From NCBI GenBank assembly GCA_963715885.1, contig CAVQSK010000029.1, positions 18,401 through 82,400 of the forward strand: a stretch of DNA of 64,000 nucleotides. Direction: 5' to 3'. The position numbers were made by a program, and so were the translations under genes. Positions 44,729-64,000 of the stretch are shown here, in pieces; position 1 is the stretch's first letter, and each line of letters opens with the position of its first letter. This DNA is from an uncultured Actinomycetota bacterium (lineage in GTDB: Bacteria; Actinomycetota; Actinomycetes; Mycobacteriales; Mycobacteriaceae). The notes beneath the pieces were generated by a model. It worked only from the letters and a program-made list of their open reading frames with translations. It did no database searches and was not told the origin of the DNA.

Positions 44729-44805
44729 TGCCGATCACCTGTTTCGATGGGACGTTGGGCGGGTTGGATATAGCGCTAGGCGATGAGGGAGCGGACCGAC
44801 AGTCA

Positions 44806-44920: not shown

Positions 44921-44924
44921 CGAC

Positions 44925-45600: not shown

Positions 45601-45609
45601 ACCAACGAT

Positions 45610-45756
45610 GGCGTCGTCGATCGGACCATCCCCAGCCTTGGCGTCATCGATGCCGTCGGGGAAGGAAGCCTCGTGTTGCGCCAACTCGCTCCCGGCGTCA
45701 CCGTCGATGATGTCATCGCAGTAACCAGCGTCGAAGTCGCGGTGGAACTGTCATGA
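45610..45756 (+). pseudogene. C-terminal remnant of 3-oxoacid CoA-transferase subunit B (ScoB-like)
   Basis: [38 protein letters not shown]; its TGA overlaps the thiolase ATG. Confidence 0.65.
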
Positions 45757-46937: not shown

Positions 46938-47610
46938 TGTCCTCCACCTGTGTCCTCCGCTTGAAATCCTCGCGATATATTTGGCGAGGGAGTCGAGGAT
47001 CTCTTCGACGGTCTTTGTTCAGCGGAACGGTTTCGGGTCGTCATTCCACGCGTTGATCCAATCGCGGACGTCGTTCTCCGGTGCGGTCACGCTCTTGATT
47101 AACGCCGCGGGGGCAGCAGTTGGTCGGTGAGAAACCGAACCAGCGTTCCACCTGGTTGATCACGAGGAGCCGGTCCGGGTGAAGGGCATGTGGAGGCGGC
47201 GGTGTTTGGCGAGCCATTCGTTGACGGCTGGGTCATGTGCGTTGCGAGATGTCGCAAATCAGGTGGACGTCCAGTTCGGCGGGTACGGCCTAATCGAGGC
47301 GATCATGAACTTGGTGAACTCGACAGCGCGGTGACGGATCTCGGATCACCGTCCCGTTGGCGATGTCGAGGCGCTGCGTAGCTCGCCGCGGTCGGCGCGT
47401 CGTGTTCACCGCGGTGGGTGTGTGTGATGAACCTGACCACCGGCAAGTCGTGCACATCGCGCTCGTGGGTCTGCCGTCGGGCGGCGAGCAGCCTGGTGAT
47501 GCGTGGTGAGCGCAGTCGTGGATGCGCTGTTCGGGCATGCCGGGCACATCGGCAGCACCGGTTGGCAGCGGTCCAGCGCCTGCATCTGGTTCTGCTCGCG
47601 GGCGACGTCT
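46938..47610 (-). mobile_element. Degenerate IS630-family transposase
   Basis: QMQALDR.QPVLPM, LDIANGTV, RHRAVEF, ELDVHLICD, INQVERWF, WNDDPKPFRWTKT..EIL; many frameshifts. Confidence 0.8.
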
Positions 47611-47689
47611 GCTAGGGAGCGCAACCTGGCGCCACGGGTGACCGGGTCGCTAGTCGGCTTCAGCAGGCGCCGGCGGGAACCGTGCTGAT

Positions 47690-47972
47690 CGGCGACCCGG
47701 GACGAGGCGTTCGCCAGCTACCAGGTGCCGGTCACCCGCTCGCTGGAAGATGCAGACATCACGCTCGCGAGGGTCTGGCGCTTCCGCGATAAACCCCGGG
47801 TCACAACCGAGTGCTCTGCAGATCGAGCGCGCCGCGCTCCCCGATCGCTCCGTAATTGGCCGCGAGCCAAGACTGGACCAGCATCGACCGCGACTACGAA
47901 CAGATCCCCGTCAACATGCAGACCCTCTTCGACGACCTGGCCCTCACGATCCCGGCGCCGCTCGCCGCTTGA
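47690..47972 (+). mobile_element. Probable C-terminal remnant of another actinobacterial transposase
   Basis: WTSIDRDYEQIPVNMQTLFDDLAL resembles transposase C-termini I recall; family not assigned. Confidence 0.4.
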
Positions 47973-48033
47973 CGATTCCAACCACGTGCGGCCCACATCG
48001 ACAACGAATTGTCGATCGGCAATCCTCAAGCGG

Positions 48034-48822
48034 CTAGCGCGCGAACATCAGCGCGCGCTTGACCTCCTGGATGGCCTGGGTGACCTGGATGCCGCGCGGG
48101 CAGGACTCGGTGCAGTTGAAGGTGGTGCGGCAGCGCCACACCCCGTCGACCTCGTTGAGGATGTCCAGCCGCTCCGCGGCGGCCTCGTCTCGGCTGTCGA
48201 AGATGAACCGGTGGGCGTTGACGATGGCGGCCGGGCCGAAGTAGCTGCCCTGGGTCCAGTAGACCGGGCAGCTGGTGGTGCAGCAAGCGCACAGGATGCA
48301 CTTGGTGGTGTCGTCGTAGCGGGCGCGGTCGGTCTGGCTTTGAATCCGTTCCCGCGTCGGCTCGTTGCCGCTGGTGATGAGGTAGGGCTTGACCGCTCGG
48401 TAGGCGTCGAAGAACGGCTCCATGTCCACCACGAGGTCCTTCTCCACCGGCAATCCGCGGATCGGTTCGATGGTGATGGTGAGCTTTTTGCCGGGCTTGT
48501 TGGGCAGCAGGTCACGCATCAGCACCTTGCATGCCAGCCGGTTGACGCCGTTGATCCGCATTGCATCGGAGCCGCATACCCCGTGCGCGCAGGACCGGCG
48601 GAAGGTCAGCGTGCCGTCCAGGTACCCCTTCACGTAGTGCAGCAGGTTGAGCAGCCGGTCGCTGGGCAGGCACGGCACGCGGAAGCTCTGCCAGCCGGCG
48701 GCGTCGGGATCCTCGGGATTGAAGCGGGCGATCTTCAGCGTCGCCATCACCGCGCCCTCGGGGACGGGCGGCAATGGAGGATCTGCGGGGTCGCTCGTCT
48801 TGTCGATGACCGGTGCGCTCAT
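48034..48822 (-). CDS. sdhB: Succinate dehydrogenase iron-sulfur subunit
   Basis: RRSCAHGVCGSD, CILCACCTTSCP, CRTTFNCTESCP. Confidence 0.95.
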   Translation of the reverse strand: MSAPVIDKTSDPADPPLPPVPEGAVMATLKIARFNPEDPDAAGWQSFRVPCLPSDRLLNLLHYVKGYLDGTLTFRRSCAHGVCGSDAMRINGVNRLACKVLMRDLLPNKPGKKLTITIEPIRGLPVEKDLVVDMEPFFDAYRAVKPYLITSGNEPTRERIQSQTDRARYDDTTKCILCACCTTSCPVYWTQGSYFGPAAIVNAHRFIFDSRDEAAAERLDILNEVDGVWRCRTTFNCTESCPRGIQVTQAIQEVKRALMFAR

Positions 48823-48823
48823 G

Positions 48824-50578
48824 TCAGTACTTCCGTTCCATCGGTTGATACCGGGTCTGCACCACCGGCTTGTAGTCCAGTCGGATGTCGGAGAGCAGCT
48901 CAGCGCCCTGCTTGTAGGCCATGGTGTGGCGCATGTAGTTGGTGTCGTCGCGGTTGGGGTAGTCCTCGCGGGCATGCCCGCCGCGGGACTCCTTGCGGTT
49001 GAGGGCGCCGACCACCGTCACCTCGGCAAGTTCGAGCAAAAAGCCCAGCTCGATCGCTTCCAGCAGGTCGCTGTTGTAGCGTTTGCCTTTGTCGTGCACC
49101 GTGATTCGGGAGTAGCGCTCCTTGAGCGCGTGGATATCGGTGAGCGCCTGCTTGAGTGTTTCCTCGGTGCGGAACACCGCGGCGTTGTTGTCCATCGACT
49201 GTTGCAGGGCGCCGCGGATGTCGGCGACGCGCTCGTTGCCGTGCTCGGAGAGGATGTCGCCGACCCAGGAGACCACCATGGCGGCCGGGTCGGTCGGCAT
49301 GGCGACGTGGTCGTGTCCCAACGCGTAGTTGGCCGCGGCGATGCCGGCGCGACGCCCGAACACGTTGATGTCCAGCAGCGAGTTGGTGCCCAGCCGGTTG
49401 GCGCCGTGCACCGACACACACGCGCACTCGCCCGCCGCGTACAAGCCGGGCACCACGGTGGTGTTGTCGCGCAACACGTTGCCGGTGATCGTGGTGGGGA
49501 TGCCGCCCATCACGTAGTGACACGTCGGGTAGACCGGCACCAGCTCGGTGACCGGGTCCACGCCCAGGTAGGTGCGGGCGAACTCGGTGATGTCGGGCAG
49601 TTTCGCCTCGAGCACGTCGGCGCCCAGATGGCGCACGTCGATGTAGACGTAGTCCTTGTGCGGGCCGGCGCCGCGGCCTTCGAGCACCTCGAGCACCATC
49701 GAGCGCGCGACGATGTCGCGCGGAGCCAGGTCGACGATGGTCGGCGCGTAGCGCTCCATGAAGCGCTCACCGTCGCCGTTGAGCAGCCGGCCGCCCTCAC
49801 CACGGACCGCCTCGGAGATCAGGATGCCCAGCCCGGCCAGACCCGTCGGGTGGAACTGGTGAAACTCCATGTCCTCCAACGGAAGTCCCTTGCCGAACAC
49901 GATGCCCAGCCCGTCGCCGGTCAGGGTGTGGGCGTTGGAGGTGGTCTTATACATCCGGCCAGACCCGCCGGTGGCGAACACGATCGCCTTGGCATGAAAG
50001 ACGTGAATGTCGCCGGTGGCCAGCTCGTAGGCGATGACACCGGTCGCCACCGGCCCGCCGGGAGTTTCCGTCATCGCGATGTCCAGGGCGTAGAACTCGT
50101 TGAAGAACTCGACGTCGTGCTTGACGCAGTTCTGATACAGCGTCTGCAGGATCATGTGGCCGGTGCGGTCGGCCGCGTAACAGGCCCGGCGCACCGGCGC
50201 CTTGCCGTGGTCGCGGGTGTGCCCGCCGAACCGGCGCTGGTCGATGCGGCCCTCGGGGGTGCGGTTGAACGGCATCCCCATCTTTTCCAGGTCGAGCACC
50301 GCGTCGATGGCTTCCTTGCACATGATCTCCACGGCGTCCTGGTCGGCGAGGTAGTCGCCGCCCTTGACGGTGTCGAAGGTGTGCCACTCCCAGTTGTCCT
50401 CTTCGACGTTGGCCAGCGCCGCGCACATGCCGCCCTGCGCCGCGCCGGTGTGGCTGCGGGTCGGGTAGAGCTTGGTCAGCACCGCGGTGCGCGCCCGCGG
50501 ACCGGCCTCGACCGCGGCGCGCATGCCCGCGCCGCCGGCACCGACGATCACGACGTCGTAGCGATGTTCGGCAATCAC
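48824..50578 (-). CDS. sdhA: Succinate dehydrogenase flavoprotein subunit
   Basis: GAGGAG, RSHTGAAQGG (covalent FAD His), QFHPTG, HYVMGG, HGANRLG, RKESRGGH. Confidence 0.96.
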   Translation of the reverse strand: MIAEHRYDVVIVGAGGAGMRAAVEAGPRARTAVLTKLYPTRSHTGAAQGGMCAALANVEEDNWEWHTFDTVKGGDYLADQDAVEIMCKEAIDAVLDLEKMGMPFNRTPEGRIDQRRFGGHTRDHGKAPVRRACYAADRTGHMILQTLYQNCVKHDVEFFNEFYALDIAMTETPGGPVATGVIAYELATGDIHVFHAKAIVFATGGSGRMYKTTSNAHTLTGDGLGIVFGKGLPLEDMEFHQFHPTGLAGLGILISEAVRGEGGRLLNGDGERFMERYAPTIVDLAPRDIVARSMVLEVLEGRGAGPHKDYVYIDVRHLGADVLEAKLPDITEFARTYLGVDPVTELVPVYPTCHYVMGGIPTTITGNVLRDNTTVVPGLYAAGECACVSVHGANRLGTNSLLDINVFGRRAGIAAANYALGHDHVAMPTDPAAMVVSWVGDILSEHGNERVADIRGALQQSMDNNAAVFRTEETLKQALTDIHALKERYSRITVHDKGKRYNSDLLEAIELGFLLELAEVTVVGALNRKESRGGHAREDYPNRDDTNYMRHTMAYKQGAELLSDIRLDYKPVVQTRYQPMERKY

Positions 50579-50581
50579 GAC

Positions 50582-51079
50582 CTAACCCCCGATGTTCGCG
50601 TCGAAGGTAACCAGCACGTAGGTGCCCAGCACCAACGTGAACCCGGTTGCCAGCAGCAGCAGCGAATTCAGATAGAACTTGGTGGTGTTCTTGCGGGCGT
50701 AGTCACCGATGATCGTGCGCATGCCGTTGGCGCCGTGCACCATCGCCAGCCACAGCAGGGCCATATCCCAGATCTGCCAGAACGGCGAGGCCCAGCGCTG
50801 CGCGACGTAGTTGAAATCGATGCGGTACACCCCGTCGCTCCACATCAGCATGATGAACAGGTGGCCGAGCGCGAGAAAGACGAGGGCGACACCAGAAAAT
50901 CTCATGAACAGCCACGCGTACTTCTCGAAGTACGGGACGCCCCTGGGCCGCCGCGGTGCACGCGGATGGTCCAGGCCGGCCGGGCGGTCGTGCTCTTTTT
51001 CCAGCACCGGTGCCACCCGGCCCTCGCGGTGATGCGGTGTCCAGGGCACTCCCGCCGACCCACCCGCTGGCGCGCTCAC
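50582..51079 (-). CDS. sdhD: Succinate dehydrogenase hydrophobic anchor
   Basis: EKYAWLFMRFSG, GHLFIM, VHGANGMRTIIGDY. Confidence 0.92.
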   Translation of the reverse strand: MSAPAGGSAGVPWTPHHREGRVAPVLEKEHDRPAGLDHPRAPRRPRGVPYFEKYAWLFMRFSGVALVFLALGHLFIMLMWSDGVYRIDFNYVAQRWASPFWQIWDMALLWLAMVHGANGMRTIIGDYARKNTTKFYLNSLLLLATGFTLVLGTYVLVTFDANIGG

Positions 51080-51504
51080 CAGAACCGCTCCGCCATGTGC
51101 ATGCCGATCACACCCAGCGCCGGGATGAAGACCGCCAAAAAGACGCCGACCACGATCCACAGCATCACCCGCTGATAGCGCGGGCCATGCTGCCAGAAGT
51201 CGATCAGGATGATCCGGATGCCGTTCAGCCCGTGGTAGAGCACCGCGACGACCAACCCGATCTCCATCAACCCGACCAGCGGCGTCTTGTACGTCTCGAT
51301 GACTTCGTTGTAGGCCTGCGGACTGACCCGCACCAGCGCGGTGTCCAGCACGTGCACGAACAGGAAGAAAAAGATCGTCGCCCCGGTAATGCGGTGCAGC
51401 ACCCACGACCACATACCGGGATCACCGCGATAAAGGGTGCGCCGAGGCGACGGTTTGGTTCGCGGAGCCGGTACCGCCGGACTCGCGGGTGTCGCAGTAC
51501 TCAT
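51076..51504 (-). CDS. sdhC: Succinate dehydrogenase cytochrome b556 subunit
   Basis: YRGDPGMWSWVLHRITG, HVLDT, YHGLNGIR. Confidence 0.92.
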   Translation of the reverse strand: MSTATPASPAVPAPRTKPSPRRTLYRGDPGMWSWVLHRITGATIFFFLFVHVLDTALVRVSPQAYNEVIETYKTPLVGLMEIGLVVAVLYHGLNGIRIILIDFWQHGPRYQRVMLWIVVGVFLAVFIPALGVIGMHMAERFW

Positions 51505-51960
51505 CGGGGCCCCCAACGCCATCGGTGAACGGAATCCACATCTGCACTCTTGACGATTACGACACCGTCGGCATCGGCGACGACGACATCGCCGGGTGCG
51601 ACCACCACGCTGCCGACGGCTACCGGCTCGCCGAGTCGGCCGGGGCCGTTCTTGTAGGGCCCCGTAGGAGTGACGTTGCGTGCTAAGACGGGTAGTCCGA
51701 GCGCGGCCAGGGCGTCGGTATCGCGAATGGCGCCGTCGATGACGAAGCCTACTAATCCGAGCATTTTCGCTCGGATTCCGATCAGGTTGCCGATGAGCGC
51801 GCGCGTTGTGTCCCCGGAGCCGTTGACTACCAATACATCTCCAGATTTGGCCGCATCGAATGCTCTGTGGAGGAAGAGATTGTCACCGAGCGCCGTCCAT
51901 ACGGTGAATGCACGGCCGGCCAATTGCGCGCCTGCCCAGAGGGGGTGACGGGTACGGTCA
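51501..51960 (-). pseudogene. RraA/HMG-aldolase family protein, N-terminally damaged
   Basis: LAGRAFTV..GDNL..H, GDVLVV, ALIGN, DGAIRD, VVAPGDVVVADADGVV; its stop overlaps the sdhC ATG. Confidence 0.75.
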
Positions 51961-52141
51961 CAGTGCGTCGAACGAGCTCGTCGCAAACCACACACGTGAG
52001 TACCGAAACATTTCCGCCCACCCTTCCAACCCGTGCCCAAATTTCAGTTTCGTTGTCCACACGAGGTCCAATTGGGCATCGGTTTGAGACACATCTGCGG
52101 CCTGCTTGACGGTGTTGGGCGGGACGCCAGGCCGGTCACCT

Positions 52142-52500
52142 TCACCCCTTCTCGACAACACGTGTCTTGTAGAGGCTGGCGACGACGGTGGTGATGACCA
52201 GTGTCACCACGATGACCGCCAGGCTGAACAGGGTGGGGATCTCGGGGACGTTAACGTGCTCACCGCCGTTGATGTACTCCGTGAGCCAGCCCGCGAAGAA
52301 TTCCAGCCCGTACTGCCCGCAGTGGAAGAACCAAACCCAAAGGCTGAAAGCACGGCGAGTCCTACATAGAACGACAACGCAATCGCGCATTCGCGCTTCG
52401 TCGGTTGACGGAGTCGGCGGGCGCTAAACACCACGTCGAATAGCAGGACGGCCATCGTCACACCCAAGATGACGAACCACTCGAGCTGGACCTGTGCATC
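52142..52500 (-). pseudogene. TerC-family membrane protein remnant with large internal deletion
   Basis: GQYGLEFFAGWLTEY joined directly to INGGEHVNVPEIPTLFSL. Confidence 0.72.
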
Positions 52501-52664
52501 AGGCGCGCCCGGTCGTCGCGAACGCAGGTCTCTTCCACCGCGATGGCGCGGCGCGGTCGTCCGATGACGGTCGACGTGATGACGACACCGCGGCGAAGGA
52601 ATACTCCCCTCCGCCTCCCAGTAACGACGCCGACATGCACTGCGACCGCTCGAAAGCGTGGCTG

Positions 52665-54068
52665 TTAGAAAAGTACAACGAACACCAGCCAGAGAATGAC
52701 CGGTGCAATAACGGTAACCGCCGCGGCGTAAAGCAATAGCTGTCGGAAGAATTTGGTCTTGTCTACCCCTTGGGCGTTGGCCAAAACGAGTGCGCCGTTG
52801 GTGGAGAACGGGCTGACGTCGACGATGGTCGACGACACCGCAAGCGCGGCGACGAAGCCCACCGCGCCGACCCCAGTGCCTCCTTGCAGGAACGGGACAG
52901 CGAGCGGGATGATCGATCCCAGCACAGCCGTGGATGAAGCGAAGGCCGAGACGATGGCGCCGATGATGCACAGCAGCAGCGCCGCGATCAGCGGAGACGC
53001 GAGACCTGCGACGCTGTCGCCAACGTAATCGATGGTGCCCATGGCGGTAAGCACGCCGACGTAGGTGCTGACCCCGGTGATGAGCAGGATCTCCGGCCAG
53101 GTGATCTGCCCGACGGCTCGTTTCTGCGAATGCGGTGACATCAGCGCCAGTACCAAGGCCACCGTCAGCGCAGTGAAACCGATGTCGGTGTCGAAGACCA
53201 CGGTCAACGCGGCGAAGGTGGCAAGTCCGACCAGCGTGAGGATCTGGTACGGACGCGAGTGACCGGCAGGTGTCTCGGGGGGCTCGTCGACCAGAAGGCT
53301 ATCGGCGTCACCTTGTACTTCGTGTTTCCACTCGGTGAGGGCCTGCCCCTCGGCGTCTCCATATACTCCTGCGCCGCCCTGCGGGGTGGCCACGGTGACG
53401 TGACCTGGGGGAGTCAGCGTGGGGTCGTCGCCATCGTCTGGAAGCCCATCACCGGCGCGGCGTTTCATCAATTTGCGGCCGCCCAGCACGATAAACAGAG
53501 CGATCGACACCACGAGGTTAACGGTGAAGCTGGCCAAGAAGACGATGATCTGATCGAACGGCAGACCGGCGCCCTCGACAACCTTGGCCGTGATGCCACC
53601 GTAGATGCTGATCGGGGAGAAACCACCGGCCTGCGCGCCGTGAATCACTAGCAGACCCATCATCAACGGGCTGATTTTGTACTGGAAGGCAAAACCCAAA
53701 GCGATCGGTGCAACGATGGCCACGGCGCCTGGGCTCACCGCGCCGACGGAGGTCAGGACAGCGGCAATCAAGAACATGATCCACGGGATCGCCCAGATCC
53801 GACCGCGAACAGCGCGAACGGCGAGATCAACCAGCCAGTCGATTGTCCCGTTGTTCTGCGCGATGGCGAACAGGTACGTGATGCCAACCAGGGTCAGGAA
53901 CAGCCCGCCGGGGAAGCCGTCGATGACATCGTCCGCTGCCATGTCGGCTACCAACGTGCCAACCAGGAACGCGCCGACGAACGCCAGGACACCCATGTTG
54001 ACTGGGACCAGCGTCGCCACAACGAACATGGCCACCAGCGCCAGGATCGAGATCAGCTCGGGCGACAT
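52665..54068 (-). CDS. MatC-family dicarboxylate carrier (SLC13-like permease)
   Basis: VNMGVLAF, FPGGLFLTLVGITYLFAIAQNNGTIDWL, GGFSPIS, DVSPFSTNGAL. Confidence 0.85.
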   Translation of the reverse strand: MSPELISILALVAMFVVATLVPVNMGVLAFVGAFLVGTLVADMAADDVIDGFPGGLFLTLVGITYLFAIAQNNGTIDWLVDLAVRAVRGRIWAIPWIMFLIAAVLTSVGAVSPGAVAIVAPIALGFAFQYKISPLMMGLLVIHGAQAGGFSPISIYGGITAKVVEGAGLPFDQIIVFLASFTVNLVVSIALFIVLGGRKLMKRRAGDGLPDDGDDPTLTPPGHVTVATPQGGAGVYGDAEGQALTEWKHEVQGDADSLLVDEPPETPAGHSRPYQILTLVGLATFAALTVVFDTDIGFTALTVALVLALMSPHSQKRAVGQITWPEILLITGVSTYVGVLTAMGTIDYVGDSVAGLASPLIAALLLCIIGAIVSAFASSTAVLGSIIPLAVPFLQGGTGVGAVGFVAALAVSSTIVDVSPFSTNGALVLANAQGVDKTKFFRQLLLYAAAVTVIAPVILWLVFVVLF

Positions 54069-54112
54069 AGCCACCTCCCCAGTGCCGCGGGACCTTGATC
54101 CGCGGGCCATTG

Positions 54113-54143
54113 AATCAGTAAGTTGATTGGGCTGAGTCAACTC
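54113..54143 (-). promoter_or_regulatory. Shared operator, copy 1 (GAGTTGACTC-N5-AATCAACTTACTGATT on minus strand)
   Basis: The 16-mer at 54113-54128 is the exact reverse complement of those at 58919 and 61427. Confidence 0.75.
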
Positions 54144-54202
54144 GATTCGGCGTCGGGAGTCAACGCTTTCGTCATCGGAAGCTCTTGTCTGGAGGTATTG
54201 GG

Positions 54203-55390
54203 ATGCCCGGTCCATTGGATGGCATTACGGTCGTCGATCTTTCCAGGGCGCTGGCCGGCCCGCATGCAGCGATGATGCTCGGGGACCTCGGAGCGCGGGT
54301 GATCAAGGTCGAGTCGCCGGGCACCGGCGACGACACGCGTGGGTGGGGCCCACCGTTTGTTGGGCCAGAAGATGCACGCGAGTCGACGTACTTCCTGTCC
54401 TGCAACCGTAATAAAGAGTCGATCGTCCTCGACCTGAAGAGCGATGACGGAAAGACCACCCTCACCAGGCTGATCCGGGCGTGCGATGTTCTGGTCGAGA
54501 ATTTCCGGCCCGGTGTGCTCGACCGCCTCGGGTTCCCAGCAGATCGGCTTCGCGAGCTGAACCCTCGGCTCGTTGTCCTGGCAATCTCCGGCTTCGGGCA
54601 CGACGGCCCACAGGGCGGCAGGGCGGGTTACGACCAGATCGCCCAGGGAGAGGCGGGTCTGATGAGCCTAACCGGGCCTTCTCCCGACGAACCGACCCGA
54701 ATCGGGGTCCCCATCGGCGATCTGCTGGCCGGAATGTACGGAGCGTACGGCGTGGTCGCAGCGTTGTACGAGCGCGCACAGACCGGCCACGGCGGCATCG
54801 TCCGGACCAGTTTGTTGGCCGCGATTGTCGGCGTCCATGCCTTCCAGGGCACCCGCTATACCGTGGCCGGTGAGGTTCCGCACGCCCAGGGCAACCATCA
54901 TCCGTCGCTTGCACCGTACGGCTCCTTCCGCTGCCGCGACGCGATCGTGCAGGTCGCCGTCGGCAGCGACGGCCTGTGGCAGGCATTCGCCCCGCTTGTC
55001 GGTATCGATCCGGCCGACACGCTGTTCGCCGACAACGCGGTTCGGGTCCAGCACCGGCAGGCGTTGATCGAACTGATCAACGACGCGTTCGCCGATCGTC
55101 CGGTCGTTGAACTTCTCGCCGACCTCGACAAGGCTGGCATCCCGGCGGGCGAGGTCAGAACTCTCGACCGGGTATATGAGTGGGATCAAACCCAGTCGCA
55201 GGGACTGCTGCTCGAGGTCGATCACTCGACCCTGGGGAAGATCAACCTGCCCGGACCGCCGCTCCGGTTTGACGCGCACTCCGTCACCGCCGATCACCGA
55301 CCTCCGCCCACCCTCGGGCAGCACAACGAAACAGTGCGCCATTGGCTCGACGAGCTCGAACAGCCGTCCCGAGCGGGGTCGACAGTGTGA
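54203..55390 (+). CDS. Class III CoA-transferase (CaiB/BaiF)
   Basis: DLSRALAGP, RVIKVE, GDDTR, NRNKES, ENFRPG, GYDQIAQ, PIGDLLAG. Confidence 0.92.
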   Translation: MPGPLDGITVVDLSRALAGPHAAMMLGDLGARVIKVESPGTGDDTRGWGPPFVGPEDARESTYFLSCNRNKESIVLDLKSDDGKTTLTRLIRACDVLVENFRPGVLDRLGFPADRLRELNPRLVVLAISGFGHDGPQGGRAGYDQIAQGEAGLMSLTGPSPDEPTRIGVPIGDLLAGMYGAYGVVAALYERAQTGHGGIVRTSLLAAIVGVHAFQGTRYTVAGEVPHAQGNHHPSLAPYGSFRCRDAIVQVAVGSDGLWQAFAPLVGIDPADTLFADNAVRVQHRQALIELINDAFADRPVVELLADLDKAGIPAGEVRTLDRVYEWDQTQSQGLLLEVDHSTLGKINLPGPPLRFDAHSVTADHRPPPTLGQHNETVRHWLDELEQPSRAGSTV

Positions 55391-56877
55391 GTGACCGCCT
55401 GAGCGCCGAGGAGTTGATTGAACTTGTACTTGATCCAGGCTCGTTTGAGCGTTGGGACGAGCCGGTGGTCCCAACGCCTGGCCTGGATCCGGGCTATGAA
55501 GCGGAGCTGACGCGCGCCCGAACGAAGACAGGGTTGGACGAGGCTGTGGTGACCGGTGAGGGCCGCATCGCCGGTCGGCGGATCGCGCTAATCGCCTGTG
55601 AGTTCGGCTTTCTTGCAGGTTCCATCGGTGTCGCCGCCGCCCAGCGTCTTGTCCGGGCGATCGTACGAGCCACCGAGGAACGCCTTCCGCTACTGGCAGC
55701 GCCCACCTCCGGGGGAACACGGATGCAGGAGGGAACAATCGCATTCGTCCAGATGGTGAAGATCAGCATCGCGGTCGTTCGACACCGCTCCGCCGGATTG
55801 CCCTACCTGGTGTATATCCGGAACCCCACCACCGGTGGGGTCTTCGCGTCATGGGGCTCACTGGGTCATGTCACCGTCGCCGAGCCAGGTGCTTTGATCG
55901 GCTTCCTCGGTCCCAGAGTCTACGAGGCGTTGCACGGTGAAGCATTCCCGGTCGGCGTCCAGGTCGCCGAAAACCTGTTGGAACAAGGGGTCATTGATGC
56001 CGTTATCCCGGCCGGTCAGCTGGCCGCGGTGGCCGAGCGAGCGTTGGACGTCCTCGACTACCACCGCACCACGATTCGACCGTTACCTGAGATCGAAGAC
56101 GAACCGGTCTCTGATGTCCCGGCGTGGGATTCGATCCAGCGATCCCGGCAGTCAGGTCGGCCGGGGATCAGGGAATTGATGGAGTATGCCGGCACCAAAA
56201 TCACCCCATTGGAAGGCACTGGCGCGGGCGAGATGGAGCCCGGCTTGTACTGCGCACTGGTCAAGTTCGGACAAGCGCCATGCGTCGTCCTCGGCCACGA
56301 CCGGCAAGCCGAAGAACTCGGCCCGATGGGCCCGGCCGGTCTTCGAGAGGCCAGGCGAGGATTCGCGCTAGCCAGAGAGCTCGGACTTCCGGTGGTGACT
56401 GTGATAGATACCGCTGGTCTGGCACTGTCCAAGGAGGCCGAAGAAGGTGGACTCGCCGGCGAGATCGCCCGCTGTCTGGGCGAATTGGTGATGCTGCCCG
56501 CACCGACGGTCTGCCTGATATTGGGCCAAGGATCCGGCGGTGGCGCCTTGGCCTTGCTGCCAGCGGACCGTGTGATCAGCACTCAACACGGTTGGTTGTC
56601 TCCGCTACCTCCCGAAGGGGCTTCCGCGATCATGTACCGAACCACCGATCGAGCGCCCGAGATCGCCCAGAGCCAGGGCGTTCGATCGCTCGATCTCCTG
56701 CGTGACGGGATCGTTGATCGAGTCATTGCTGAGGAGCCCGACGCCACCCAAGCGCCAGAAGAATTGATGCGGAGGCTTGGGCGTGTCCTCGAACAAGAGA
56801 TATCAGCTTTGCTTTTGACCGACCCGGACAAGCGCTTGGCGGACCGGCTGGACCGGTATCACCGTCTGGGGGTCTAG
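55387..56877 (+). CDS. Fused beta/alpha acyl-CoA carboxyltransferase (AccD3-like)
   Basis: FGFLAGSIG, SGGTRMQEG, PTTGGVFASW, GFLGPRV, VIDTAG, GQGSGGGA; no biotin carboxylase or carrier gene nearby. Confidence 0.88.
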   Translation: MSDRLSAEELIELVLDPGSFERWDEPVVPTPGLDPGYEAELTRARTKTGLDEAVVTGEGRIAGRRIALIACEFGFLAGSIGVAAAQRLVRAIVRATEERLPLLAAPTSGGTRMQEGTIAFVQMVKISIAVVRHRSAGLPYLVYIRNPTTGGVFASWGSLGHVTVAEPGALIGFLGPRVYEALHGEAFPVGVQVAENLLEQGVIDAVIPAGQLAAVAERALDVLDYHRTTIRPLPEIEDEPVSDVPAWDSIQRSRQSGRPGIRELMEYAGTKITPLEGTGAGEMEPGLYCALVKFGQAPCVVLGHDRQAEELGPMGPAGLREARRGFALARELGLPVVTVIDTAGLALSKEAEEGGLAGEIARCLGELVMLPAPTVCLILGQGSGGGALALLPADRVISTQHGWLSPLPPEGASAIMYRTTDRAPEIAQSQGVRSLDLLRDGIVDRVIAEEPDATQAPEELMRRLGRVLEQEISALLLTDPDKRLADRLDRYHRLGV

Positions 56878-57108
56878 GTGACAGGGCGGACAAAGTGCGA
56901 CCTCGATGACATTGGCCCGCAGCAGCAAATGGATGCATGAGCTGGTGTCACATGAGGGGTTGACGTCCCTGGCCAGCATCGGCGCGACCATCGTCCTCGA
57001 CCGGTGGAGGTTGGCCGACTGTGTGGTGCTGCGCTCATGGTCGCCCACGCTCGCCCGCCAGATCGGGGCTGCGGCACCATCCCCGGGTAGATTGGGATGA
57101 ACGAATAG

Positions 57109-57945
57109 GTGCCCGCATATGGCGCTAGGTCTTCACGCCCGAACGGACGATCCATGATGAGAACTAGGGTTACGTCTGGCACCCCAGACGACGGCGACCC
57201 CAACTCGGTTGTCGATCGGCCGCTGCGATCGGGGCCCCCGAAAGCAGCCCAACTCATCGTCGCTGATCTACGTCGGCAAATCATTAGGGGGGACCTGCGC
57301 GGTGATGACTCACTTCCCTCTGAGAACGAATTGATGCGGCTCTATGGCGTGTCTCGTCCCACGCTGCGCGAGGCGCTGCGTGTGCTTGAATTCGAAGGAT
57401 TGCTGACAGTGCGACGCGGAGCCAGGGGGGGTTCCACGGTCCATGTCCCCACTGGGGAGGCGGCGGCGCGTTCGATGGCGCTCGTGTTGGAGCACCGCGG
57501 CGCAACTCTTGCCGATGTGGTCGAGGCCCGATCGGCCATCGAACCTGCCTGCGCCAGATTGGTCGCCGAGCGCGGCAAGAAGGCGCATCTGCTCCGCTTG
57601 AAGCAGGACCTCGCATCCAGTGCCAACGGGGGTTCGGATAGTACGCAATCCAGCGGCTTCCACGAACTACTCGTTGACCTCGCTGGCAACCAAACCCTGA
57701 CGCTGATGTATGGGATGCTTCGTCTTGTCCTGAACGAGTCCACCACGGGCGTGCAGCTCGTCGAGTGCACGGACACCCGCAATCTGACCGGGCGACGACG
57801 GGCGCACGACGCCCACCAGCATCTGGTCGATCTGATCGAGAGGAAGGACGGCGATCAGGCCGAGGGATTTTGGGCTGAGCATCTTCGCGGGGGCTATCTC
57901 GCCCGTAAACCGCCGGGCGCAACGCCTTTGAATTTCAGTGCATGA
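57109..57945 (+). CDS. FadR/GntR-family regulator (start uncertain)
   Basis: LPSENELMRLYGVSRPTLREALRVL, FHELL..AGNQTL, HQHLVDLI. Confidence 0.88.
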   Translation: MPAYGARSSRPNGRSMMRTRVTSGTPDDGDPNSVVDRPLRSGPPKAAQLIVADLRRQIIRGDLRGDDSLPSENELMRLYGVSRPTLREALRVLEFEGLLTVRRGARGGSTVHVPTGEAAARSMALVLEHRGATLADVVEARSAIEPACARLVAERGKKAHLLRLKQDLASSANGGSDSTQSSGFHELLVDLAGNQTLTLMYGMLRLVLNESTTGVQLVECTDTRNLTGRRRAHDAHQHLVDLIERKDGDQAEGFWAEHLRGGYLARKPPGATPLNFSA

Positions 57946-57959
57946 GATCGCCGGGTTCG

Positions 57960-58450
57960 GCCGTTCTGGCCGCGGTGAGTATGGGGTCGTGGCTCTGATC
58001 GGACATCAGTGCATAGATGCCGTCCGCGCGGTGGTGGGCCGACCGTACGGCCTCGTTCCCGTAGCCCCTGACAAGGTCGACGATCTCTCGGGGGGGTGGG
58101 GAAGTGTCCGGTGGCCTGGAGGCGGTAGGAGTGCGATTCCAGGCAGGAAGCCATCGAGCCGTTCATGCAGGAGTGCGGATAGATAGATCAGCGCCGGATT
58201 GCCGAATATCGCGAAGGTCGCTGTGTGAAAGGACATTTCGCGTTGGATGAGCTGCTCGATGGTCAGCGTAGGGATGGGTTCCATGTCGGCGCAGACCTGC
58301 AGTGCACCGATGCGGTCGTTTATGGGAGGTTTGGCCAGCGCCCACAAGCGCGGAATGGAGCGCTGCGTTCGCTTGAAACCGTTCGGCGGTCGTCGCCCGA
58401 GGGTCGGGCAGCGCCGTTCGGTGGGAGCGGGGCGATCGTTCACGGCTTTG
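57960..58450 (-). pseudogene. Possible decayed GntR FCD-domain remnant
   Basis: EMSFHTATFAIFGNPAL and EIVDLV fragments in different frames. Confidence 0.35.
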
Positions 58451-58661
58451 CTTCATAACAGGTCGATCCTCCGGTTGACAGGTAGGTGTCGAAAACCAGA
58501 GGTCTTGTCTGCCCTGTGGGCCGAGGGCGCCGGGTGCCTGCACTGTGCAATCGAACCGTGATGATGACGCCGACGCGGGGGACTACTCCCCTCCATGTAG
58601 TAGAAACTGTCCTGGAGAACGACACCGATGGCCAGATGACGTGCGTCACACTGACCTGTTT

Positions 58662-58937
58662 GTCCCATGCTCGCTGCCGCACTGACCGCACACCCCGGCG
58701 GCTCTTTCGGGGTGAGGACCCCGACTTGCGAGTGGGAGTTTTGCCCACCACCTAACGCACGACGATCGAAAGACGAACCCAATTCGTTGGGTCCCGGAAG
58801 TTGGGTCGCCACCTGTTGTGCGCGGACGACCCCACGCCTAAACGATCGACGCGCGGTACCGACAAGTCTTGATCGCCGAAGCATTGACTGATCCGGATCA
58901 CCCGAGTTCACTTAACGCAATCAACTTACTGATTAAT
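58662..58937 (+). repeat. ~270-bp duplicated upstream region, copy A (before gltA)
   Basis: Collinear with 61185-61445 from GTCCCATGCTCGCTGC to AATCAACTTACTGATTAAT, with scattered substitutions and indels. Confidence 0.9.
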
Positions 58938-59031
58938 GCGGAACGCCTAGCGCCTACCTTCCGTTACCGGACGACGGCTCGATCCGTGGAGCGAAGTCCC
59001 CGGGTTGACTCAACGAGATGGAGCGAACGAG

Positions 59032-60456
59032 ATGTCCAAGGTCACACACATCGTCCCACCAGCGGGTACACCCACCGAAGGCGAGCCCGACCCAACGGCG
59101 GATAAGCCCTCCACCTCCGAAACATCGAGGATGCCGACGTCCGACCAGATTTCGGGGCCGGACCCTTCAGGGGCACAGCGTGCCGTCATCCACTACGGTG
59201 ACGGAGAACTCGAACTGAAAGTTGTCCCAGCGACAGAAGGCGCCCCCGGCGTCGAAATATCCAAACTGCTGACGACACTGGGGGTCATCACGCTCGATCC
59301 CGGGTTCACCAACACCGGCTCGACCACCTCGGCCATCACCTACATTGACGGCGATGCCGGCATCCTGCGCTACCGCGGGTACCCAATCGAACAGCTCGCT
59401 CAGTCATCCAGCTTCCTGGAAACCAGTTACCTCCTGATTTACGGCGAACTGCCGACCAGCCCCGACCTGGAGGCCTTTACCAACCGGATCAGCCGGCACA
59501 CGATGCTGCACGAAGACCTCAAACGGTTCTTCGACGGGTTCCCGCGCAACGCCCACCCGATGCCTGTCCTGTCGAGCGCGGTCGGCGCGCTGTCCACCTT
59601 CTACCAGGACTCGCTGGATCCGTTTAACCCCGAACAGGTGGACCTGTCCACCATCCGGTTGCTGGCGAAACTGCCCACCATCGCTGCCTACGCCTACAAG
59701 AAGTCGGTCGGCCAGCCCCTGCTGTACCCAGACAACTCGCTCAGTCTGGTCGAGAATTTCCTCCGGATGTCGTTCGGGTTCCCGGCCGAGCCCTACGAGG
59801 TCAATCCGAAGTTGGCCAAGGCCCTCGATCAGCTGCTGATATTGCACGCTGACCACGAACAAAACTGTTCGACATCCACAGTGCGACTTGCGGGGTCGTC
59901 AAATGCGAACCTGTTCGCGTCGATCTCCGCCGGGATCAACGCCCTGTTCGGACCCTTGCATGGCGGGGCGAACCAAGCGGTGCTGGAGATGCTCGAGTCC
60001 ATCCGTCGCGGCGGTGGCACCGTCAACGAGTTTGTCCAAAAAGTCAAGAACCAAGAGCCCGGCGTCAAGCTGATGGGCTTCGGCCATCGTGTCTACAAAA
60101 ACTACGACCCACGTGCGGCGCTGGTCAAAACAACAGCGCACGAGGTGCTCGACGACCTCGGCGGCGACGACGAACTGCTTGACCTCGCCCAACAATTGGA
60201 GGAAGTCGCCTTGGCGGACGAGTACTTCATCACCCGCAACCTCTATCCCAATGTGGATTTTTACACCGGGCTGATCTATAAGGCCATGGGGTTCCCCACC
60301 CCGATGTTCACGGTGCTGTTCGCGTTGGGTCGCCTACCCGGCTGGATCGCCCAGTGGCGAGAAATGATCAACGACCCGGCCACCAAGATCGGCCGACCGC
60401 GGCAGGTTTACACCGGGTACACCGAGCGCGACTACATCCCCACAGCAGATCGCTAG
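59032..60456 (+). CDS. gltA: Citrate synthase (GltA2-type; start could be later)
   Basis: DPGFTNTGS, AHPMPVL, HADHEQNCST, GPLHGGAN, MGFGHRVYK, YPNVDFY. Confidence 0.95.
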   Translation: MSKVTHIVPPAGTPTEGEPDPTADKPSTSETSRMPTSDQISGPDPSGAQRAVIHYGDGELELKVVPATEGAPGVEISKLLTTLGVITLDPGFTNTGSTTSAITYIDGDAGILRYRGYPIEQLAQSSSFLETSYLLIYGELPTSPDLEAFTNRISRHTMLHEDLKRFFDGFPRNAHPMPVLSSAVGALSTFYQDSLDPFNPEQVDLSTIRLLAKLPTIAAYAYKKSVGQPLLYPDNSLSLVENFLRMSFGFPAEPYEVNPKLAKALDQLLILHADHEQNCSTSTVRLAGSSNANLFASISAGINALFGPLHGGANQAVLEMLESIRRGGGTVNEFVQKVKNQEPGVKLMGFGHRVYKNYDPRAALVKTTAHEVLDDLGGDDELLDLAQQLEEVALADEYFITRNLYPNVDFYTGLIYKAMGFPTPMFTVLFALGRLPGWIAQWREMINDPATKIGRPRQVYTGYTERDYIPTADR

Positions 60457-60576
60457 CCTTCAGCGCCGACAGACGTCGATCACTGCTGAGACCGCTATGA
60501 TGCCTGCCTACGCAGCGGGACATCGCGATTGCAGACGGCATAGCGTGACGGATACCGAGGTTCGGTGGGTCGCAGA

Positions 60577-61153
60577 ATGAATCGATTCCATCGGGCGCTA
60601 TTGCGCCAGCGCGAAGTGGGAGAAACTGATGCTGGAAAGCCTCCTGCCGGACGCTCTGGGCGGGGTCTCCCTCGGAGACAGCGTGCTGGAGCTAGGACCA
60701 GGGCCTGGCCTGACTACCCTGGCCTGGCACACATCTCCGCGGGTCACGGCCGTCGAGATCGACGGGAAACTAGCACAGATGGCGCGGGAACGGACGCGCT
60801 CGTTGGGGCAACGTCGAGGTGGTCGAAGGGGATGCGACTGCGCTGCCATTCGATGACGCGCGGTTCGCTCTGTCGTCTGCATGACTATGCTGCACCATCT
60901 GCATCACGCGGCGGCGCAAGATCGGCTGTTGGCCGAGGCGCGTCGCGTACTGCTGCCGGGTGGAGTGTTATGCGGGTCGGACAATCTCGGACAACGGGGA
61001 TCAGGTTTCCGGTTGATCCACCTCGGTGACAGTCGGACAGTTGTCGACCCGGAGACGCTTCCGGCCCGGCTGACGAGCGCCGGGTTCGATCGTGTCGATG
61101 TTAGGACTGGTTCGCGCTTGGCCTTTCACGAATACACCAGCAAGACTGTCTGA
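60577..61153 (+). pseudogene. Class I SAM methyltransferase with three frameshifts
   Basis: VLELGPGPG, TAVEID, GDATALPF, MLHHL; shifts near 60595, 60805 and 60867. Confidence 0.75.
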
Positions 61154-61184
61154 CCGATTAACGGCGAGAATAGAGCGACGAGTC

Positions 61185-61445
61185 GTCCCATGCTCGCTGC
61201 TGCGCTGACCGCGCACCCCTGCGGCTCTTTTGAGCGCCCGACATGCGAGTGGGGTTTTGCCCACCTAACGCACGACGATCGACGAACCCATTCCTTGATC
61301 CCGGAAGTTGGATCGCCACCTGTTGTGCGGGGACGGCCCCACGTCTAGACGATCGACGCGCGGTACCGACAAGGTCTTGACCCCAGAAGCATTGACTGAT
61401 CCGGATCACGCGAGTTGACTCGACACAATCAACTTACTGATTAAT
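61185..61445 (+). repeat. ~260-bp duplicated upstream region, copy B (before sucC)
   Basis: Collinear with 58662-58937. Confidence 0.9.
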
Positions 61446-61714
61446 AGGCTGTGCGGATCGCCCACCTTAAGGAGGTCTTGATGTCCAGTGACCTGACATG
61501 ACTTGTCGAGCTACGCAAGGTCAGTGGGGCGGCATGCCGGCAATCTGCCCCACGATGTCGAGAAGATCGCCGCAAGCATGGCCCAACACCCCTCACGGTG
61601 AGTTGACAAGCCGGGCCCGCAGAAATCCAGCGATCTGGCGGACCCAGACCCGGGACAAGACCGCCATAGCTGGGGACAACTGCACGGATCGCCACCGCCA
61701 AGTTAGGAGAACAC

Positions 61715-62884
61715 GTGGATCTGTACGAGTACCAGGCCAAGGAACTGTTCGCCGCGCACGGCGTCCCGGCTCCTGCCGGCATCGTCGCCCGCACCGTCGA
61801 CGAAGCGGTTGAGGCCGCGACCCGGTTGGGCACCCCCGTGATGGTGAAATCACAAGTCAAGATGGGTGGCCGCGGCAAGGCCGGCGGGGTGAAGTTCGCC
61901 AAGACGATCGATGATGTCCGTTCGCATGCCGACAACATCCTCGGTCTGGACATCAAAGGTCATATCACCCGGCAGATCCTGATCACCCCGGCCAGCGACA
62001 TCGCCGAGGAGTACTACGTCTCGTTCCTGCTGGACCGCTCCAACCGCACCTTCCTAGCGATGGCCACCCGCGAGGGCGGCATGGACATAGAGCAACTCGC
62101 CGAGGAACGCCCGGAGGCGCTGGCCAAGATCCCGGTCAGCGCACTTACCGGGATGGACGCCGCCAAGGCCGCCGAGATTGCCGACGCCGGCAAGTTCCCC
62201 GACGAGGTTCGTGAACAGATCATCGCCATCCTGGTCGGGCTCTGGGACGCATTCGTCTCGGAGGACGCCACCCTGGTCGAGGTCAACCCTCTGGTGAAGA
62301 TCAAGGACGGCACCGTGGTCGCGCTGGACGGCAAGGTCTCCCTCGACGAGAACGCCGACTTCCGTCACCCGGACCACGCAGCCCTCGCGGACAGCTCCGC
62401 GGAGAACCCGCTCGAGGTGGAGGCGAAGGAAAAGGGCTTGAACTACGTGAAACTCGACGGCCAGATCGGGGTCATCGGCAACGGTGCGGGCCTGGTGATG
62501 TCGACCCTGGACGTGGTGGCTTACGCCGGGGAATCGCACGGTGGGTTGACCCCGGCGAACTTCCTGGACATCGGGGGCGGCGCGAGCGCCGAGGTGATGG
62601 CCAACGGCCTGCACATCATCCTGTCCGATCCCGATGTCAAGGCGGTGTTTGTCAACGTGTTCGGCGGGATCACGGCGTGTGATGCGGTGGCGAACGGCAT
62701 CGTTGGTGCGCTGGAGATGCTGGGCGACGAGGCCACCAAGCCGCTCGTGGTCCGTCTCGACGGGAACAACGTCGAGGAGGGTCGGCGCATCCTGAACGAG
62801 GCTGCGCACCCACTGGTGACGCAGGCCGAGACCATGGACAAGGGCGCCGACAAGGCCGCCGAGCTTGCGAATGCTGGAGTCTGA
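61715..62884 (+). CDS. sucC: Succinate-CoA ligase beta subunit
   Basis: [47 protein letters not shown]. Confidence 0.95.
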
Positions 62885-62887
62885 ACA

Positions 62888-63769
62888 ATGGCCATTTTTC
62901 TGAACGAATCCTCCCGCGTCATCGTGCAGGGTATGACCGGTGCCGAGGGCACCAGGCACACCCGCCGGATGATCGCCTCCGGCACCACCGTTGTCGGCGG
63001 GGTGAACGCCCGAAAGGCCGGGACCAGCGTCGATTTCGACGGCACCGCGGTGCCGGTGTTCGGTTCTGTGGCCGAGGCGATGGACAAGACCGGCGCTGAT
63101 GTCTCGGTGCTGTTCGTGCCGCCCGCGTTCACCAAGGACGCGATCATCGAGGCGATCGACGCCGGCATCGGGCTGGCCGTGGTCATCACCGAGGGTGTCC
63201 CCGTGCACGACTCCGCGGTCGCCTGGGCGCACGCGGTGGCAACCGGCAACAAAACCCGGATCATCGGGCCGAACTGTCCCGGCATCATCTCGCCCGGCAA
63301 GTCCAACGCGGGCATCATCCCGGCCAACATCACCGGCCCCGGCAAGCTCGGTCTGGTGTCGAAGTCCGGCACCCTGACCTACCAGTTGATGTACGAACTG
63401 AGGGATCTCGGGTTCTCCACCGCGATCGGCATCGGTGGTGATCCGATCATCGGAACCACCCACATCGACGCGCTGCAGGCGTTCGAGGCCGACCCGGAGA
63501 CCGAGGCCATCGTGATGATCGGTGAAATCGGCGGTGATGCCGAGGAACGTGCGGCCGCGTTCATCGCCGACAACGTCACGAAGCCGGTCGTCGGGTACGT
63601 CGCCGGGTTCACCGCTCCCGAGGGTAAGACCATGGGCCACGCCGGAGCCATCGTCTCCGGCTCGTCGGGTACCGCCCAGGCAAAGAAGGACGCGCTCGAG
63701 GCCGCCGGGGTAAAGGTCGGCAAGACACCATCGGAAACCGCGCTGATTGTCCACCACAGCCTTGGTTGA
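62888..63769 (+). CDS. sucD: Succinate-CoA ligase alpha subunit
   Basis: [33 protein letters not shown] (phospho-His). Confidence 0.95.
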
Positions 63770-63794
63770 ACGAACACGGTGAGGTGAAGGTCAT

Positions 63795-64000
63795 GGCGGG
63801 TACCCCAGACCTCCGTTCCTAGGGTCGAAGCTGCGGAACTTCCTGCTGGGCGGTGGGGGCTGGCCCTACCTGCTGGTGCCGTTCATCCCGATCGCCATCG
63901 GGCTTAGAAAATCCCACGCTGACGCGCCGATAGTTTTCGCCGCTTTGGCCTGTGATACCCACCGCAGCTCTGCTGGGGCGAGCGACCGAGGACCTTGCCT
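63795..64000 (+). pseudogene. Ca2+/H+ antiporter (CAX-type) N-terminus, frameshifted, runs off the window
   Basis: YLLVPFIPIAIGL...PIVFAA, then in another frame IPTAALLGRATEDLA. Confidence 0.6.

Follow-up and report, generated by a model that had tools for sequence, protein, structure and literature searches.

Why would a set of genes for a dicarboxylate keep its own citrate synthase, succinyl-CoA synthetase and succinate dehydrogenase (Sdh)? The question is raised by positions 48034-63769 of a 64,000-nucleotide (nt) stretch of contig CAVQSK010000029.1, from an uncultured actinomycetote of the Mycobacteriaceae; the whole stretch is here called the window. A preliminary description of this DNA read the region as a malonate-utilisation regulon wired to tricarboxylic acid (TCA) cycle genes of its own. 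The answer towards which we lean, with a confidence just short of an even call, is that a four-gene module for malonate, or a very close analogue, seeded a small regulon into which TCA genes were recruited. The substrate, the CoA donor, the biotin independence and the co-regulation are all points that we infer.

The gene inventory of the preliminary description is borne out by Pfam and NCBIfam profile matches, the basis of the gene identities given here; equivalog cut-offs (NCBIfam) are exceeded by the type-II citrate synthase, SucC and the forward-Sdh flavoprotein. Labels beginning with C (C3, C12, C15, C19, C20, C29, C30, C31) denote contigs of the same 6.97-Mb genome, with the window on C29, and labels beginning with L (L009, L010, L107-L110 and others) denote loci or contigs of relatives and other genomes. 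The principal features are:

48034-48825, minus strand: sdhB, iron-sulfur subunit (Fer2_3/Fer4; NF004616, 344 bits against a cut-off of 228; start approximate)
48824-50578, minus strand: sdhA, flavoprotein subunit (TIGR01816, 984 bits against 727)
50582-51016, minus strand: sdhD, membrane anchor (Pfam Sdh_cyt; gene calls in L010; start approximate)
51076-51504, minus strand: sdhC, cytochrome b subunit (comparison with the housekeeping copy on C3)
52665-54069, minus strand: matC, MatC/CitMHS-type dicarboxylate carrier (PF07158 MatC_N, 208 bits, cut-off 23; PF03600, 119 bits)
54092-54166, minus strand: putative promoter/operator region facing matC, common to the divergent caiB (AAGCGTTGACT, CGAGTTGACT and the 16-mer AATCAACTTACTGATT at 54113-54128)
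54203-55390, plus strand: caiB, class III CoA-transferase (PF02515, 399 bits)
55387-56877, plus strand: CT, fused AccD-AccA-type carboxyltransferase (CT) of 496 amino acids (aa) (Pfam Carboxyl_trans and ACCA)
57109-57945, plus strand: GntR/FCD (FadR-subfamily) regulator (Pfam GntR and FCD)
58651-58970, plus strand: cassette 1 (hairpin, ~200 nt, boxes; 16-mer at 58919-58934), upstream of the gltA 5' untranslated region
59032-60456, plus strand: gltA, type-II citrate synthase (NF004126, 686 bits against 505)
61185-61503, plus strand: cassette 2 (16-mer at 61427-61442), preceding sucC
61715-62884, plus strand: sucC, ADP-forming succinyl-CoA synthetase subunit (NF001913, 529 bits against 370)
62888-63769, plus strand: sucD (Pfam CoA_binding and Ligase_CoA)

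The start codon and ribosome-binding site (RBS) of matC were identified by reading the sequence; the GntR start probably lies near 57334, with gene calls in L010 and L108 giving 203 aa. The independent metagenome contig L010 is 98.4% identical to the window over 16 kb and has the same layout, as does the 452-kb contig L108 (identity of the two to the window 98.4-98.6%), so the layout is not an assembly artefact. A plasmid origin of C29 was considered and rejected, given that no similar plasmid was found and that the same cluster lies within L108; the cluster is more likely a chromosomal island.

A shared element precedes matC, gltA and sucC

What ties these genes together? The 16-mer is present in exactly three copies in the genome, upstream of matC, gltA and sucC. 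The 17-mer CAATCAACTTACTGATT likewise occurs exactly three times genome-wide, always within the window: at 54113 in the divergent matC/caiB interval (minus strand, pointing toward matC), at 58918 and at 61426. The chance expectation is ~0.001 occurrences in 6.97 Mb, and a genome search allowing up to one mismatch to the 17-mer returned no site beyond these three. The element is an imperfect dyad, AATCA-N6-TGATT, embedded in ~75 nt of homologous promoter/operator sequence. One identical palindrome had been claimed before matC/caiB, gltA and sucCD; the identity holds for the 17-mer at all three sites, and the perfect palindrome does not.

When the sequences upstream of matC in the window and in L009 (a relative with a CT 87% identical) are aligned with those upstream of gltA and sucC, three invariant or nearly invariant boxes stand out (AAGCRTTGACT, CGAGTTSACT and the 16-mer) between spacers that have strongly diverged. 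L009 carries the same boxes before matC. Invariant boxes amid diverged spacers are, as judged from this alignment, a footprint of constraint.

Upstream of gltA and of sucC, the boxes make up the 3' end of cassettes of ~300 nt each that are 86% identical to one another and open with a terminator-like hairpin. Cassette 2 ends in a matC-like RBS and ATG, which opens a six-codon remnant open reading frame (ORF) at 61481-61501, and therefore the cassettes derive from a complete matC-type 5' region. An Rfam scan of the long leaders gave no match at E ≤ 0.1, and a search of 80 other genomes, 48 belonging to the same genus and 32 to other families of the order, did not turn up the cassette.

Relatives preserve the state before capture. 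In L107 and L110, gltA (94% nucleotide identity) has no cassette before it: homology to the window ends at 58971 in L107 and at 58968 in L110, and picks up again further upstream in L107. This is an empty site, and the element was therefore added before gltA. Each of the five independent contigs that extend upstream of sucC (window, L010, L108, L109 and L110) has the sucC cassette, and the gltA cassette is confined to the window, L010 and L108. Given that L109 and L110 have the cassette at sucC and that L110 lacks it at gltA, sucCD was captured first and gltA later. The suggested co-regulation of the TCA genes with matC thus finds support for gltA and sucCD, from the boxes, their orientation and the empty-site comparison, and does not extend in this form to sdh, which has no element. 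The operator of the native module on C20 (described below) differs from that of the window, so the dyad is not backed independently by this operon.

Some 16 kb past the window end, C29:98124-99487 carries another GntR/FCD gene (52% identity to that of the window). It is transcribed divergently from a sucC pseudogene fragment that contains two stop codons, and between the two is a dyad, ATCAGGTAGCTGAT (ATCA-N6-TGAT), related to that of the window; a repeat resembling an insertion sequence (IS) follows directly. These may be the remains of another GntR-controlled sucCD.

A CoA-transferase paired with a carboxyltransferase

CaiB is nearest to SUGCT-type succinyl-CoA:dicarboxylate transferases (PDB 9br7 and 4ed9 were aligned), with which it shares the fold family and ~40% identity over the full length. 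The best NCBIfam match is NF052585 (succinate-glutarate CoA-transferase) at 320 bits, far under the equivalog cut-off of 750. Structure-database scores are 290 bits for SUGCT and 237 bits for mesaconate transferase, and YfdE-type acetyl-CoA:oxalate transferases reach 252 bits (NCBIfam) and 237 bits (PDB). In the GV..D motif, D173 of CaiB lines up with the Asp of SUGCT and 4ed9; we take this residue, kept in CaiB, to be catalytic. The acceptor proposed here, putatively malonate, sets CaiB apart from SUGCT. Because the closest characterised transferases use succinyl-CoA and sucCD carries the cassette in 5/5 contigs, succinyl-CoA is a plausible CoA donor, and the earlier idea that SucCD recharges this donor fits.

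CT belongs to superfamilies PF01039 and PF03255, its PDB matches are the beta and alpha CT subunits of acetyl-CoA carboxylase (ACC), and in an alignment of the CT family it keeps all ACC-type motifs. It scores under the cut-offs of both the accD model (181 bits, cut-off 317) and the accA model (150 bits, cut-off 357). The accD match begins at position 56 of 285, so that the N-terminal part is absent; in E. coli AccD this part holds a Zn-ribbon. Against the MdcD and MdcE models of malonate decarboxylase, CT reaches 51 bits (TIGR03133, cut-off 278) and 30 bits (TIGR03134, cut-off 237), and no protein in the whole genome exceeds the cut-off of either. A decarboxylation of malonyl-CoA by CT without biotin would follow from gene context, not from the sequence of the protein.

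Is the pair peculiar to this locus? The CT family is very large in Actinobacteria, and we took 80 loci from named genomes, with 6 kb on each side of CT. In 49 of the 80, the gene immediately upstream of CT, on the same strand, encodes a class III CoA-transferase. Eleven of these 49 also have a gene of the AtzD/barbiturase family downstream on the same strand, and they come from Rhodococcus, Intrasporangium, Frankiales, Cryptosporangium, Jatrophihabitans, Nonomuraea and several metagenome-assembled genomes (MAGs). Barbiturase-family genes are found too in 3 of the 31 loci without caiB, two of which are on contigs that end just upstream of CT. The gene order in Rhodococcus sp. BP22 (L014) reads caiB-CT-barbiturase-amidase-PucR regulator-amidase, and the Rhodococcus barbiturase matches PDB 5hwe (‘Barbiturase’) at 760 bits, compared with ~330 bits for cyanuric acid hydrolases. 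Barbiturase and ureidomalonase turn barbiturate into malonate and urea (PMC3758960). No barbiturase was found in the genome to which the window belongs.

We read the topology of a maximum-likelihood CT tree, in which support for deep branches is weak, against a table of caiB and barbiturase presence. The window CT groups with caiB-linked and barbiturase-linked sequences, apart from the paralog on C15 of its own genome and from a mostly caiB-less Nocardioides clade. Its best match in the same genus is 61% identical (in a sample of 250 genomes), metagenomic relatives reach 81-98%, and it is foreign to the genus and a member of the caiB-linked branch. A minority of genus members carry a caiB-linked second CT copy, and the genome of the window has a second, native operon on C20, with a GntR gene divergent from matC-caiB-CT.

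The C15 paralog (C15:91527-92990) is 58% identical to the window CT and has no caiB beside it; of 249 genomes sampled from the genus, 208 have a caiB-less paralog of this kind. We take it to be AccD3 (Rv0904c / MSMEG_5642). AccD3-type proteins share the fused AccD-AccA architecture of the window CT, and most members of the genus encode a single one. The function of AccD3 ‘awaits further study’ (PMC5311964); from the caiB-linked branch, malonyl-CoA decarboxylation can be hypothesised for the family.

Malonate is the best-supported candidate substrate, given the MatC-family carrier, the GntR/FCD regulator, the conserved caiB-CT unit and its barbiturase linkage in 11 loci that span several actinobacterial families. 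These are the grounds on which the malonate-type substrate of the preliminary description can be retained. Its further proposal, that CaiB replaces MatB and the carboxyltransferase replaces MatA, draws independent comparative support from the 49 of 80 loci with the pair, and remains a putative assignment.

Several caiB-CT loci have other neighbours. In a Frankiales MAG (L017:11544-12581), CT and barbiturase are separated by a gene of the amino-acid-kinase family that may encode a carbamate kinase, an arrangement that hints at a variant fate of the ureido group. On the conjugative Paenarthrobacter plasmid pYJN5-2 (L007), caiB-CT adjoins an amidase and an amidohydrolase; this caiB is not in the distributed annotation. 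The caiB-CT loci of Streptosporangiaceae (L028, L042, L053, L065, L072, L076, L080-L082, L084, L087 and L090) have a carbon-nitrogen hydrolase alongside and two small conserved ORFs of unassigned function, and 6 of the 12 (L028, L072, L081, L082, L084 and one more) carry a HyuB-type hydantoinase/caprolactamase-like gene. These may represent another cyclic-amide pathway ending in malonate.

Assembly of the locus

Housekeeping versions of all three TCA units lie elsewhere in the genome, outside the window. GltA of the window is 74% identical at the protein level to its housekeeping counterpart on C15, and SucC and SucD are 67% and 74% identical to those on C31. GltA and SucC are closest to Nakamurella proteins (79-88%) rather than to these housekeeping copies, so gltA and sucC are foreign. 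In L009, the core of matC divergent from caiB-CT-GntR stands alone and is followed by a Na/Ca-exchanger gene, the same gene that follows sucD in the window. The gltA-methyltransferase-sucCD block is therefore situated between GntR and the exchanger gene.

The set of TCA genes varies. In relatives that are 94% identical (L109:6200-8437 and L110:8087-10325), sucCD is followed by genes for a monomeric isocitrate dehydrogenase (icd) and a 1153-aa kinase/AAA/MalT-like regulator. Both genes are missing in the window, and L108 retains only a 64-aa isocitrate dehydrogenase fragment; no copy of the 16-mer was found before icd in L109 or L110. L009 holds a fragment of 2-oxoglutarate dehydrogenase E1 and the end of sdhB. 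From icd in the former and the E1 and sdhB pieces in the latter, TCA genes were gathered by at least two independent routes.

The sdh genes have another origin. The block at 48027-51531 (3.5 kb) is 99.6% identical to the housekeeping sdh operon on C3, from which it differs by 12 substitutions and two single-base indels, both outside ORFs. Coding differences amount to two non-synonymous and six synonymous changes. SdhA (partner at C3:184820-186568, 100%) and SdhB are identical to the C3 proteins; SdhC and SdhD each show a single residue change. Upstream of the sdhC ATG, homology to the C3 locus extends for only ~27 nt, and the duplication thus left out the native sdh promoter. The insertion junction at 51531 removed the 3' end of an RraA-like gene, and the block has the same orientation as matC. 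Its link to the regulon would depend on presumed read-through from the matC promoter; a simple scan of the minus strand of the matC-sdhC interval detected no terminator-like site.

These results change the role that was first given to Sdh. What had been viewed as a distinct extra enzyme is a near-identical copy of the C3 operon, and a difference in malonate Ki between the two enzymes is excluded by the identity of SdhA and SdhB. A malonate-insensitive Sdh can be ruled out on the same ground. The idea that Sdh offsets malonate inhibition may stand in one form only, dosage or co-induction, and not as an altered enzyme.

Three broken genes that the preliminary description did not mention lie in the matC-sdhC interval (the first two) and between gltA and sucC:

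51501-51950, minus strand: fragment of an RraA-like gene (HMG/CHA aldolase / oxaloacetate decarboxylase family; Pfam RraA-like)
52142-52615, minus strand: TerC-family remnant, a pseudogene (72-74% nucleotide similarity to C12 and C19)
60565-61153, plus strand: frameshifted S-adenosylmethionine (SAM)-methyltransferase remnant (intact, 191 aa, in L109 and L110)

The PRK06201 match of the RraA-like fragment covers model positions 36-185 of 222 and is under the cut-off, with both ends lost; it is probably a pseudogene, and with both ends truncated it was dismissed as a working oxaloacetate decarboxylase of the pathway. The TerC remnant has an internal deletion and a frameshift, and a Pfam scan of its fragments gave no match. 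The assignment comes from its nucleotide similarity to the full-length gene on C12, a 349-aa ORF that carries TerC motifs.

Proposed mechanism and likeness to known systems

How might these parts work together? MatC would import the dicarboxylate (malonate or a very close analogue), and the SUGCT-like class III CoA-transferase would make malonyl-CoA, most likely from succinyl-CoA. CT would then strip the free carboxyl group of malonyl-CoA to give acetyl-CoA, the same chemistry as that of MdcD/MdcE on malonyl-ACP (ACP, acyl carrier protein). SucCD would recharge the succinate released by the transferase, making activation ATP-dependent overall, and GltA would take up the acetyl-CoA. Sdh made together with the carrier could offset competitive inhibition by malonate through its amount and not through altered properties. 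The GntR/FCD protein would control the module via the conserved region with AATCA-N6-TGATT. The DNA rearrangements that made the module the seed of the proposed regulon can be read from the sequences: a gltA-methyltransferase-sucCD block of Nakamurella-like origin came to lie between GntR and the Na/Ca-exchanger gene, matC-type 5' regions (terminator, promoter/operator, RBS and ATG) were copied before sucCD and gltA, and a promoterless sdhCDAB duplicate was inserted into the RraA-like gene downstream of matC.

One of the closest known systems is Rhizobium matABC/matR, which has a MatC-family carrier, a GntR-type regulator and the same conversion of malonate to malonyl-CoA and on to acetyl-CoA. 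In contrast to the AMP-forming synthetase MatB and to MatA of the malonyl-CoA decarboxylase (MCD) family, activation here would be by a putative class III CoA-transferase and decarboxylation by a putative fused AccD/AccA-type carboxyltransferase. No gene for an acyl-CoA synthetase, and hence none for MatB, occurs at 44000-64000. The MCD family of MatA (PF05292) has no match in the genome, but it is silent in 14/14 control genomes as well. The GntR regulator matches MatR at the family level only. Unlike Rhizobium Mat, the TCA genes in the window bear the cis-element of the module.

MdcACDE and the Na+-pumping Mad system of Malonomonas also couple acyl transfer to CO2 removal by AccD/AccA-like subunits (MdcD/E and MadC/D). 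They differ in that ACP (MdcC), MdcA and prosthetic-group genes are absent among the genes of the window cluster, where the thioester carrier would be free CoA. As for the oxidative pyrimidine (barbiturate) pathway of Rhodococcus, caiB-CT adjoins barbiturase on its upstream side in this genus and in other actinobacteria, and the pair would consume the malonate released, whereas here malonate would enter from outside via MatC. A full-text literature search found no description of the caiB-CT enzyme pair or of such a regulon, with incomplete coverage that does not amount to proof of absence.

We put forward tentatively, and regard as more doubtful than not, a joint proposal with two parts. In one, the SUGCT-like transferase and the AccD3-type CT form an undescribed ACP-free, biotin-independent route from malonate to acetyl-CoA that is widespread in Actinobacteria and completes the barbiturate pathway. 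In the other, a malonate-responsive regulon was built by operator copying before the acquired gltA and sucCD and by fusion of sdhCDAB behind matC. To our knowledge, two malonate routes are established, MatAB and the ACP-based Mdc/Mad complexes. Should the proposal be true, the transferase-carboxyltransferase pair would be a third, would identify the downstream step that is missing from the barbiturate pathway and would give the orphan AccD3 family a testable function. The locus would also document a natural instance of regulon assembly by promoter capture, in which the CoA donor is recharged, acetyl-CoA is drained and the inhibition of Sdh is titrated out. It displays regulon building, with a cassette copied to new genes and the state before insertion still present in relatives, and foreign and duplicated genes of central metabolism gathered around a pathway that has an inhibitor of one of them as its substrate. 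Malonate catabolism and GntR regulons are kinds of system already known. The evolutionary history of the locus is well documented; its biochemistry and regulation we infer entirely.

Weighing the alternatives

Several observations weigh against a malonate regulon of this kind. No sigma-70-like promoter was recognised across the region (17 kb scanned), so the promoter and operator boxes are not told apart. CaiB falls below the cut-off of every equivalog model, no barbiturase was found in 38 of the 49 caiB-CT loci, and no MatC homologue in any of the 80 loci (80/80), each within 6 kb on either side of CT. The sdh genes have no copy of the shared element and are separated from matC by 1.1 kb of decayed genes. 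Recent segmental copies from other contigs make C29 a mosaic, and given this mosaic, sdh in particular could be a passenger.

So, are all the TCA genes passengers? They could have collected in a hot spot of gene accretion, with the common sequence a duplicated intergenic stretch and no functional regulon. C29 is rich in recent segmental copies and fragments (RraA, TerC, methyltransferase, a DUF772 transposase piece and sucC), the sdh copy is almost unchanged, and the cluster varies among close relatives in icd and in IS elements. We nevertheless find this unlikely, since the three paralogous copies and the relatives show 100% conservation of the boxes against a divergence of 14-35% in the spacers and the remaining cassette sequence, and since the cassettes are placed precisely before intact genes in the correct orientation. 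That gltA acquired its cassette separately from sucCD, that the TCA genes came by both foreign transfer and internal duplication, and that gltA, sucCD and sdh are intact amid the decay of unrelated neighbours likewise tell against chance accretion. In another alternative, the same module might use acetyl-CoA as the donor: malonate and acetyl-CoA would give malonyl-CoA and acetate, and malonyl-CoA would give acetyl-CoA and CO2. This self-contained cycle would resemble the acetyl-ACP/malonyl-ACP cycle of malonate decarboxylase, and the TCA genes would only raise the general capacity for oxidation. The caiB-CT pair lacks sucCD nearby in nearly all of the 49 loci, so its donor must be a universal one, and the YfdE-type acetyl-CoA:oxalate transferases are close relatives of CaiB (252 and 237 bits). 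On the other hand, the best matches of CaiB are succinyl-CoA-dependent (SUGCT, 320 and 290 bits; mesaconate transferase, 237), and the cassette that sucCD carries in all variants is hard to explain without a role for succinyl-CoA. An acetyl-CoA donor thus seems to us improbable, if worth keeping in mind.

The chemistry itself could be another. The substrate might be methylmalonate, ethylmalonate or a glutarate-type dicarboxylate, or CT might be half of a biotin-dependent carboxylase or transcarboxylase with its biotin-carrying subunit encoded elsewhere. SUGCT-type transferases accept several dicarboxylates, the genus-wide paralog that we take to be AccD3 is without an assigned function, and CT, with all ACC-type motifs kept, is closer to the carboxyltransferases of biotin-dependent ACC (E 5e-44) than to the biotin-independent MdcD (E 3.5e-6). 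The description of CT as biotin-partner-less is correct in that no gene for biotin carboxylase or biotin carboxyl carrier protein was found in the cluster or among the 25 neighbour families most widespread across the 80 CT loci. This is weak evidence in a genus whose CT subunits routinely use biotin-carrying subunits encoded elsewhere. Against such alternatives, the linkage to barbiturase points specifically to malonate, the E. coli-type CT acts on acetyl-CoA/malonyl-CoA, and the want of biotin genes among those neighbour families counts to some degree as well. We consider a different substrate or a biotin-dependent CT quite improbable.

Neighbouring copies on the contig

Just upstream of the cluster, window positions 42779-46943 hold a KAS-III-like gene 96% identical to a copy on C30 and a thiolase gene 94% identical to one on C12, with a DUF772 transposase fragment (44728-45435) between them. 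Past the window end, the sequence at C29:84666-85787 matches itself at offsets that are multiples of 144 bases, with 86-92% mutual identity, which suggests a tandem array of about eight 144-bp units.

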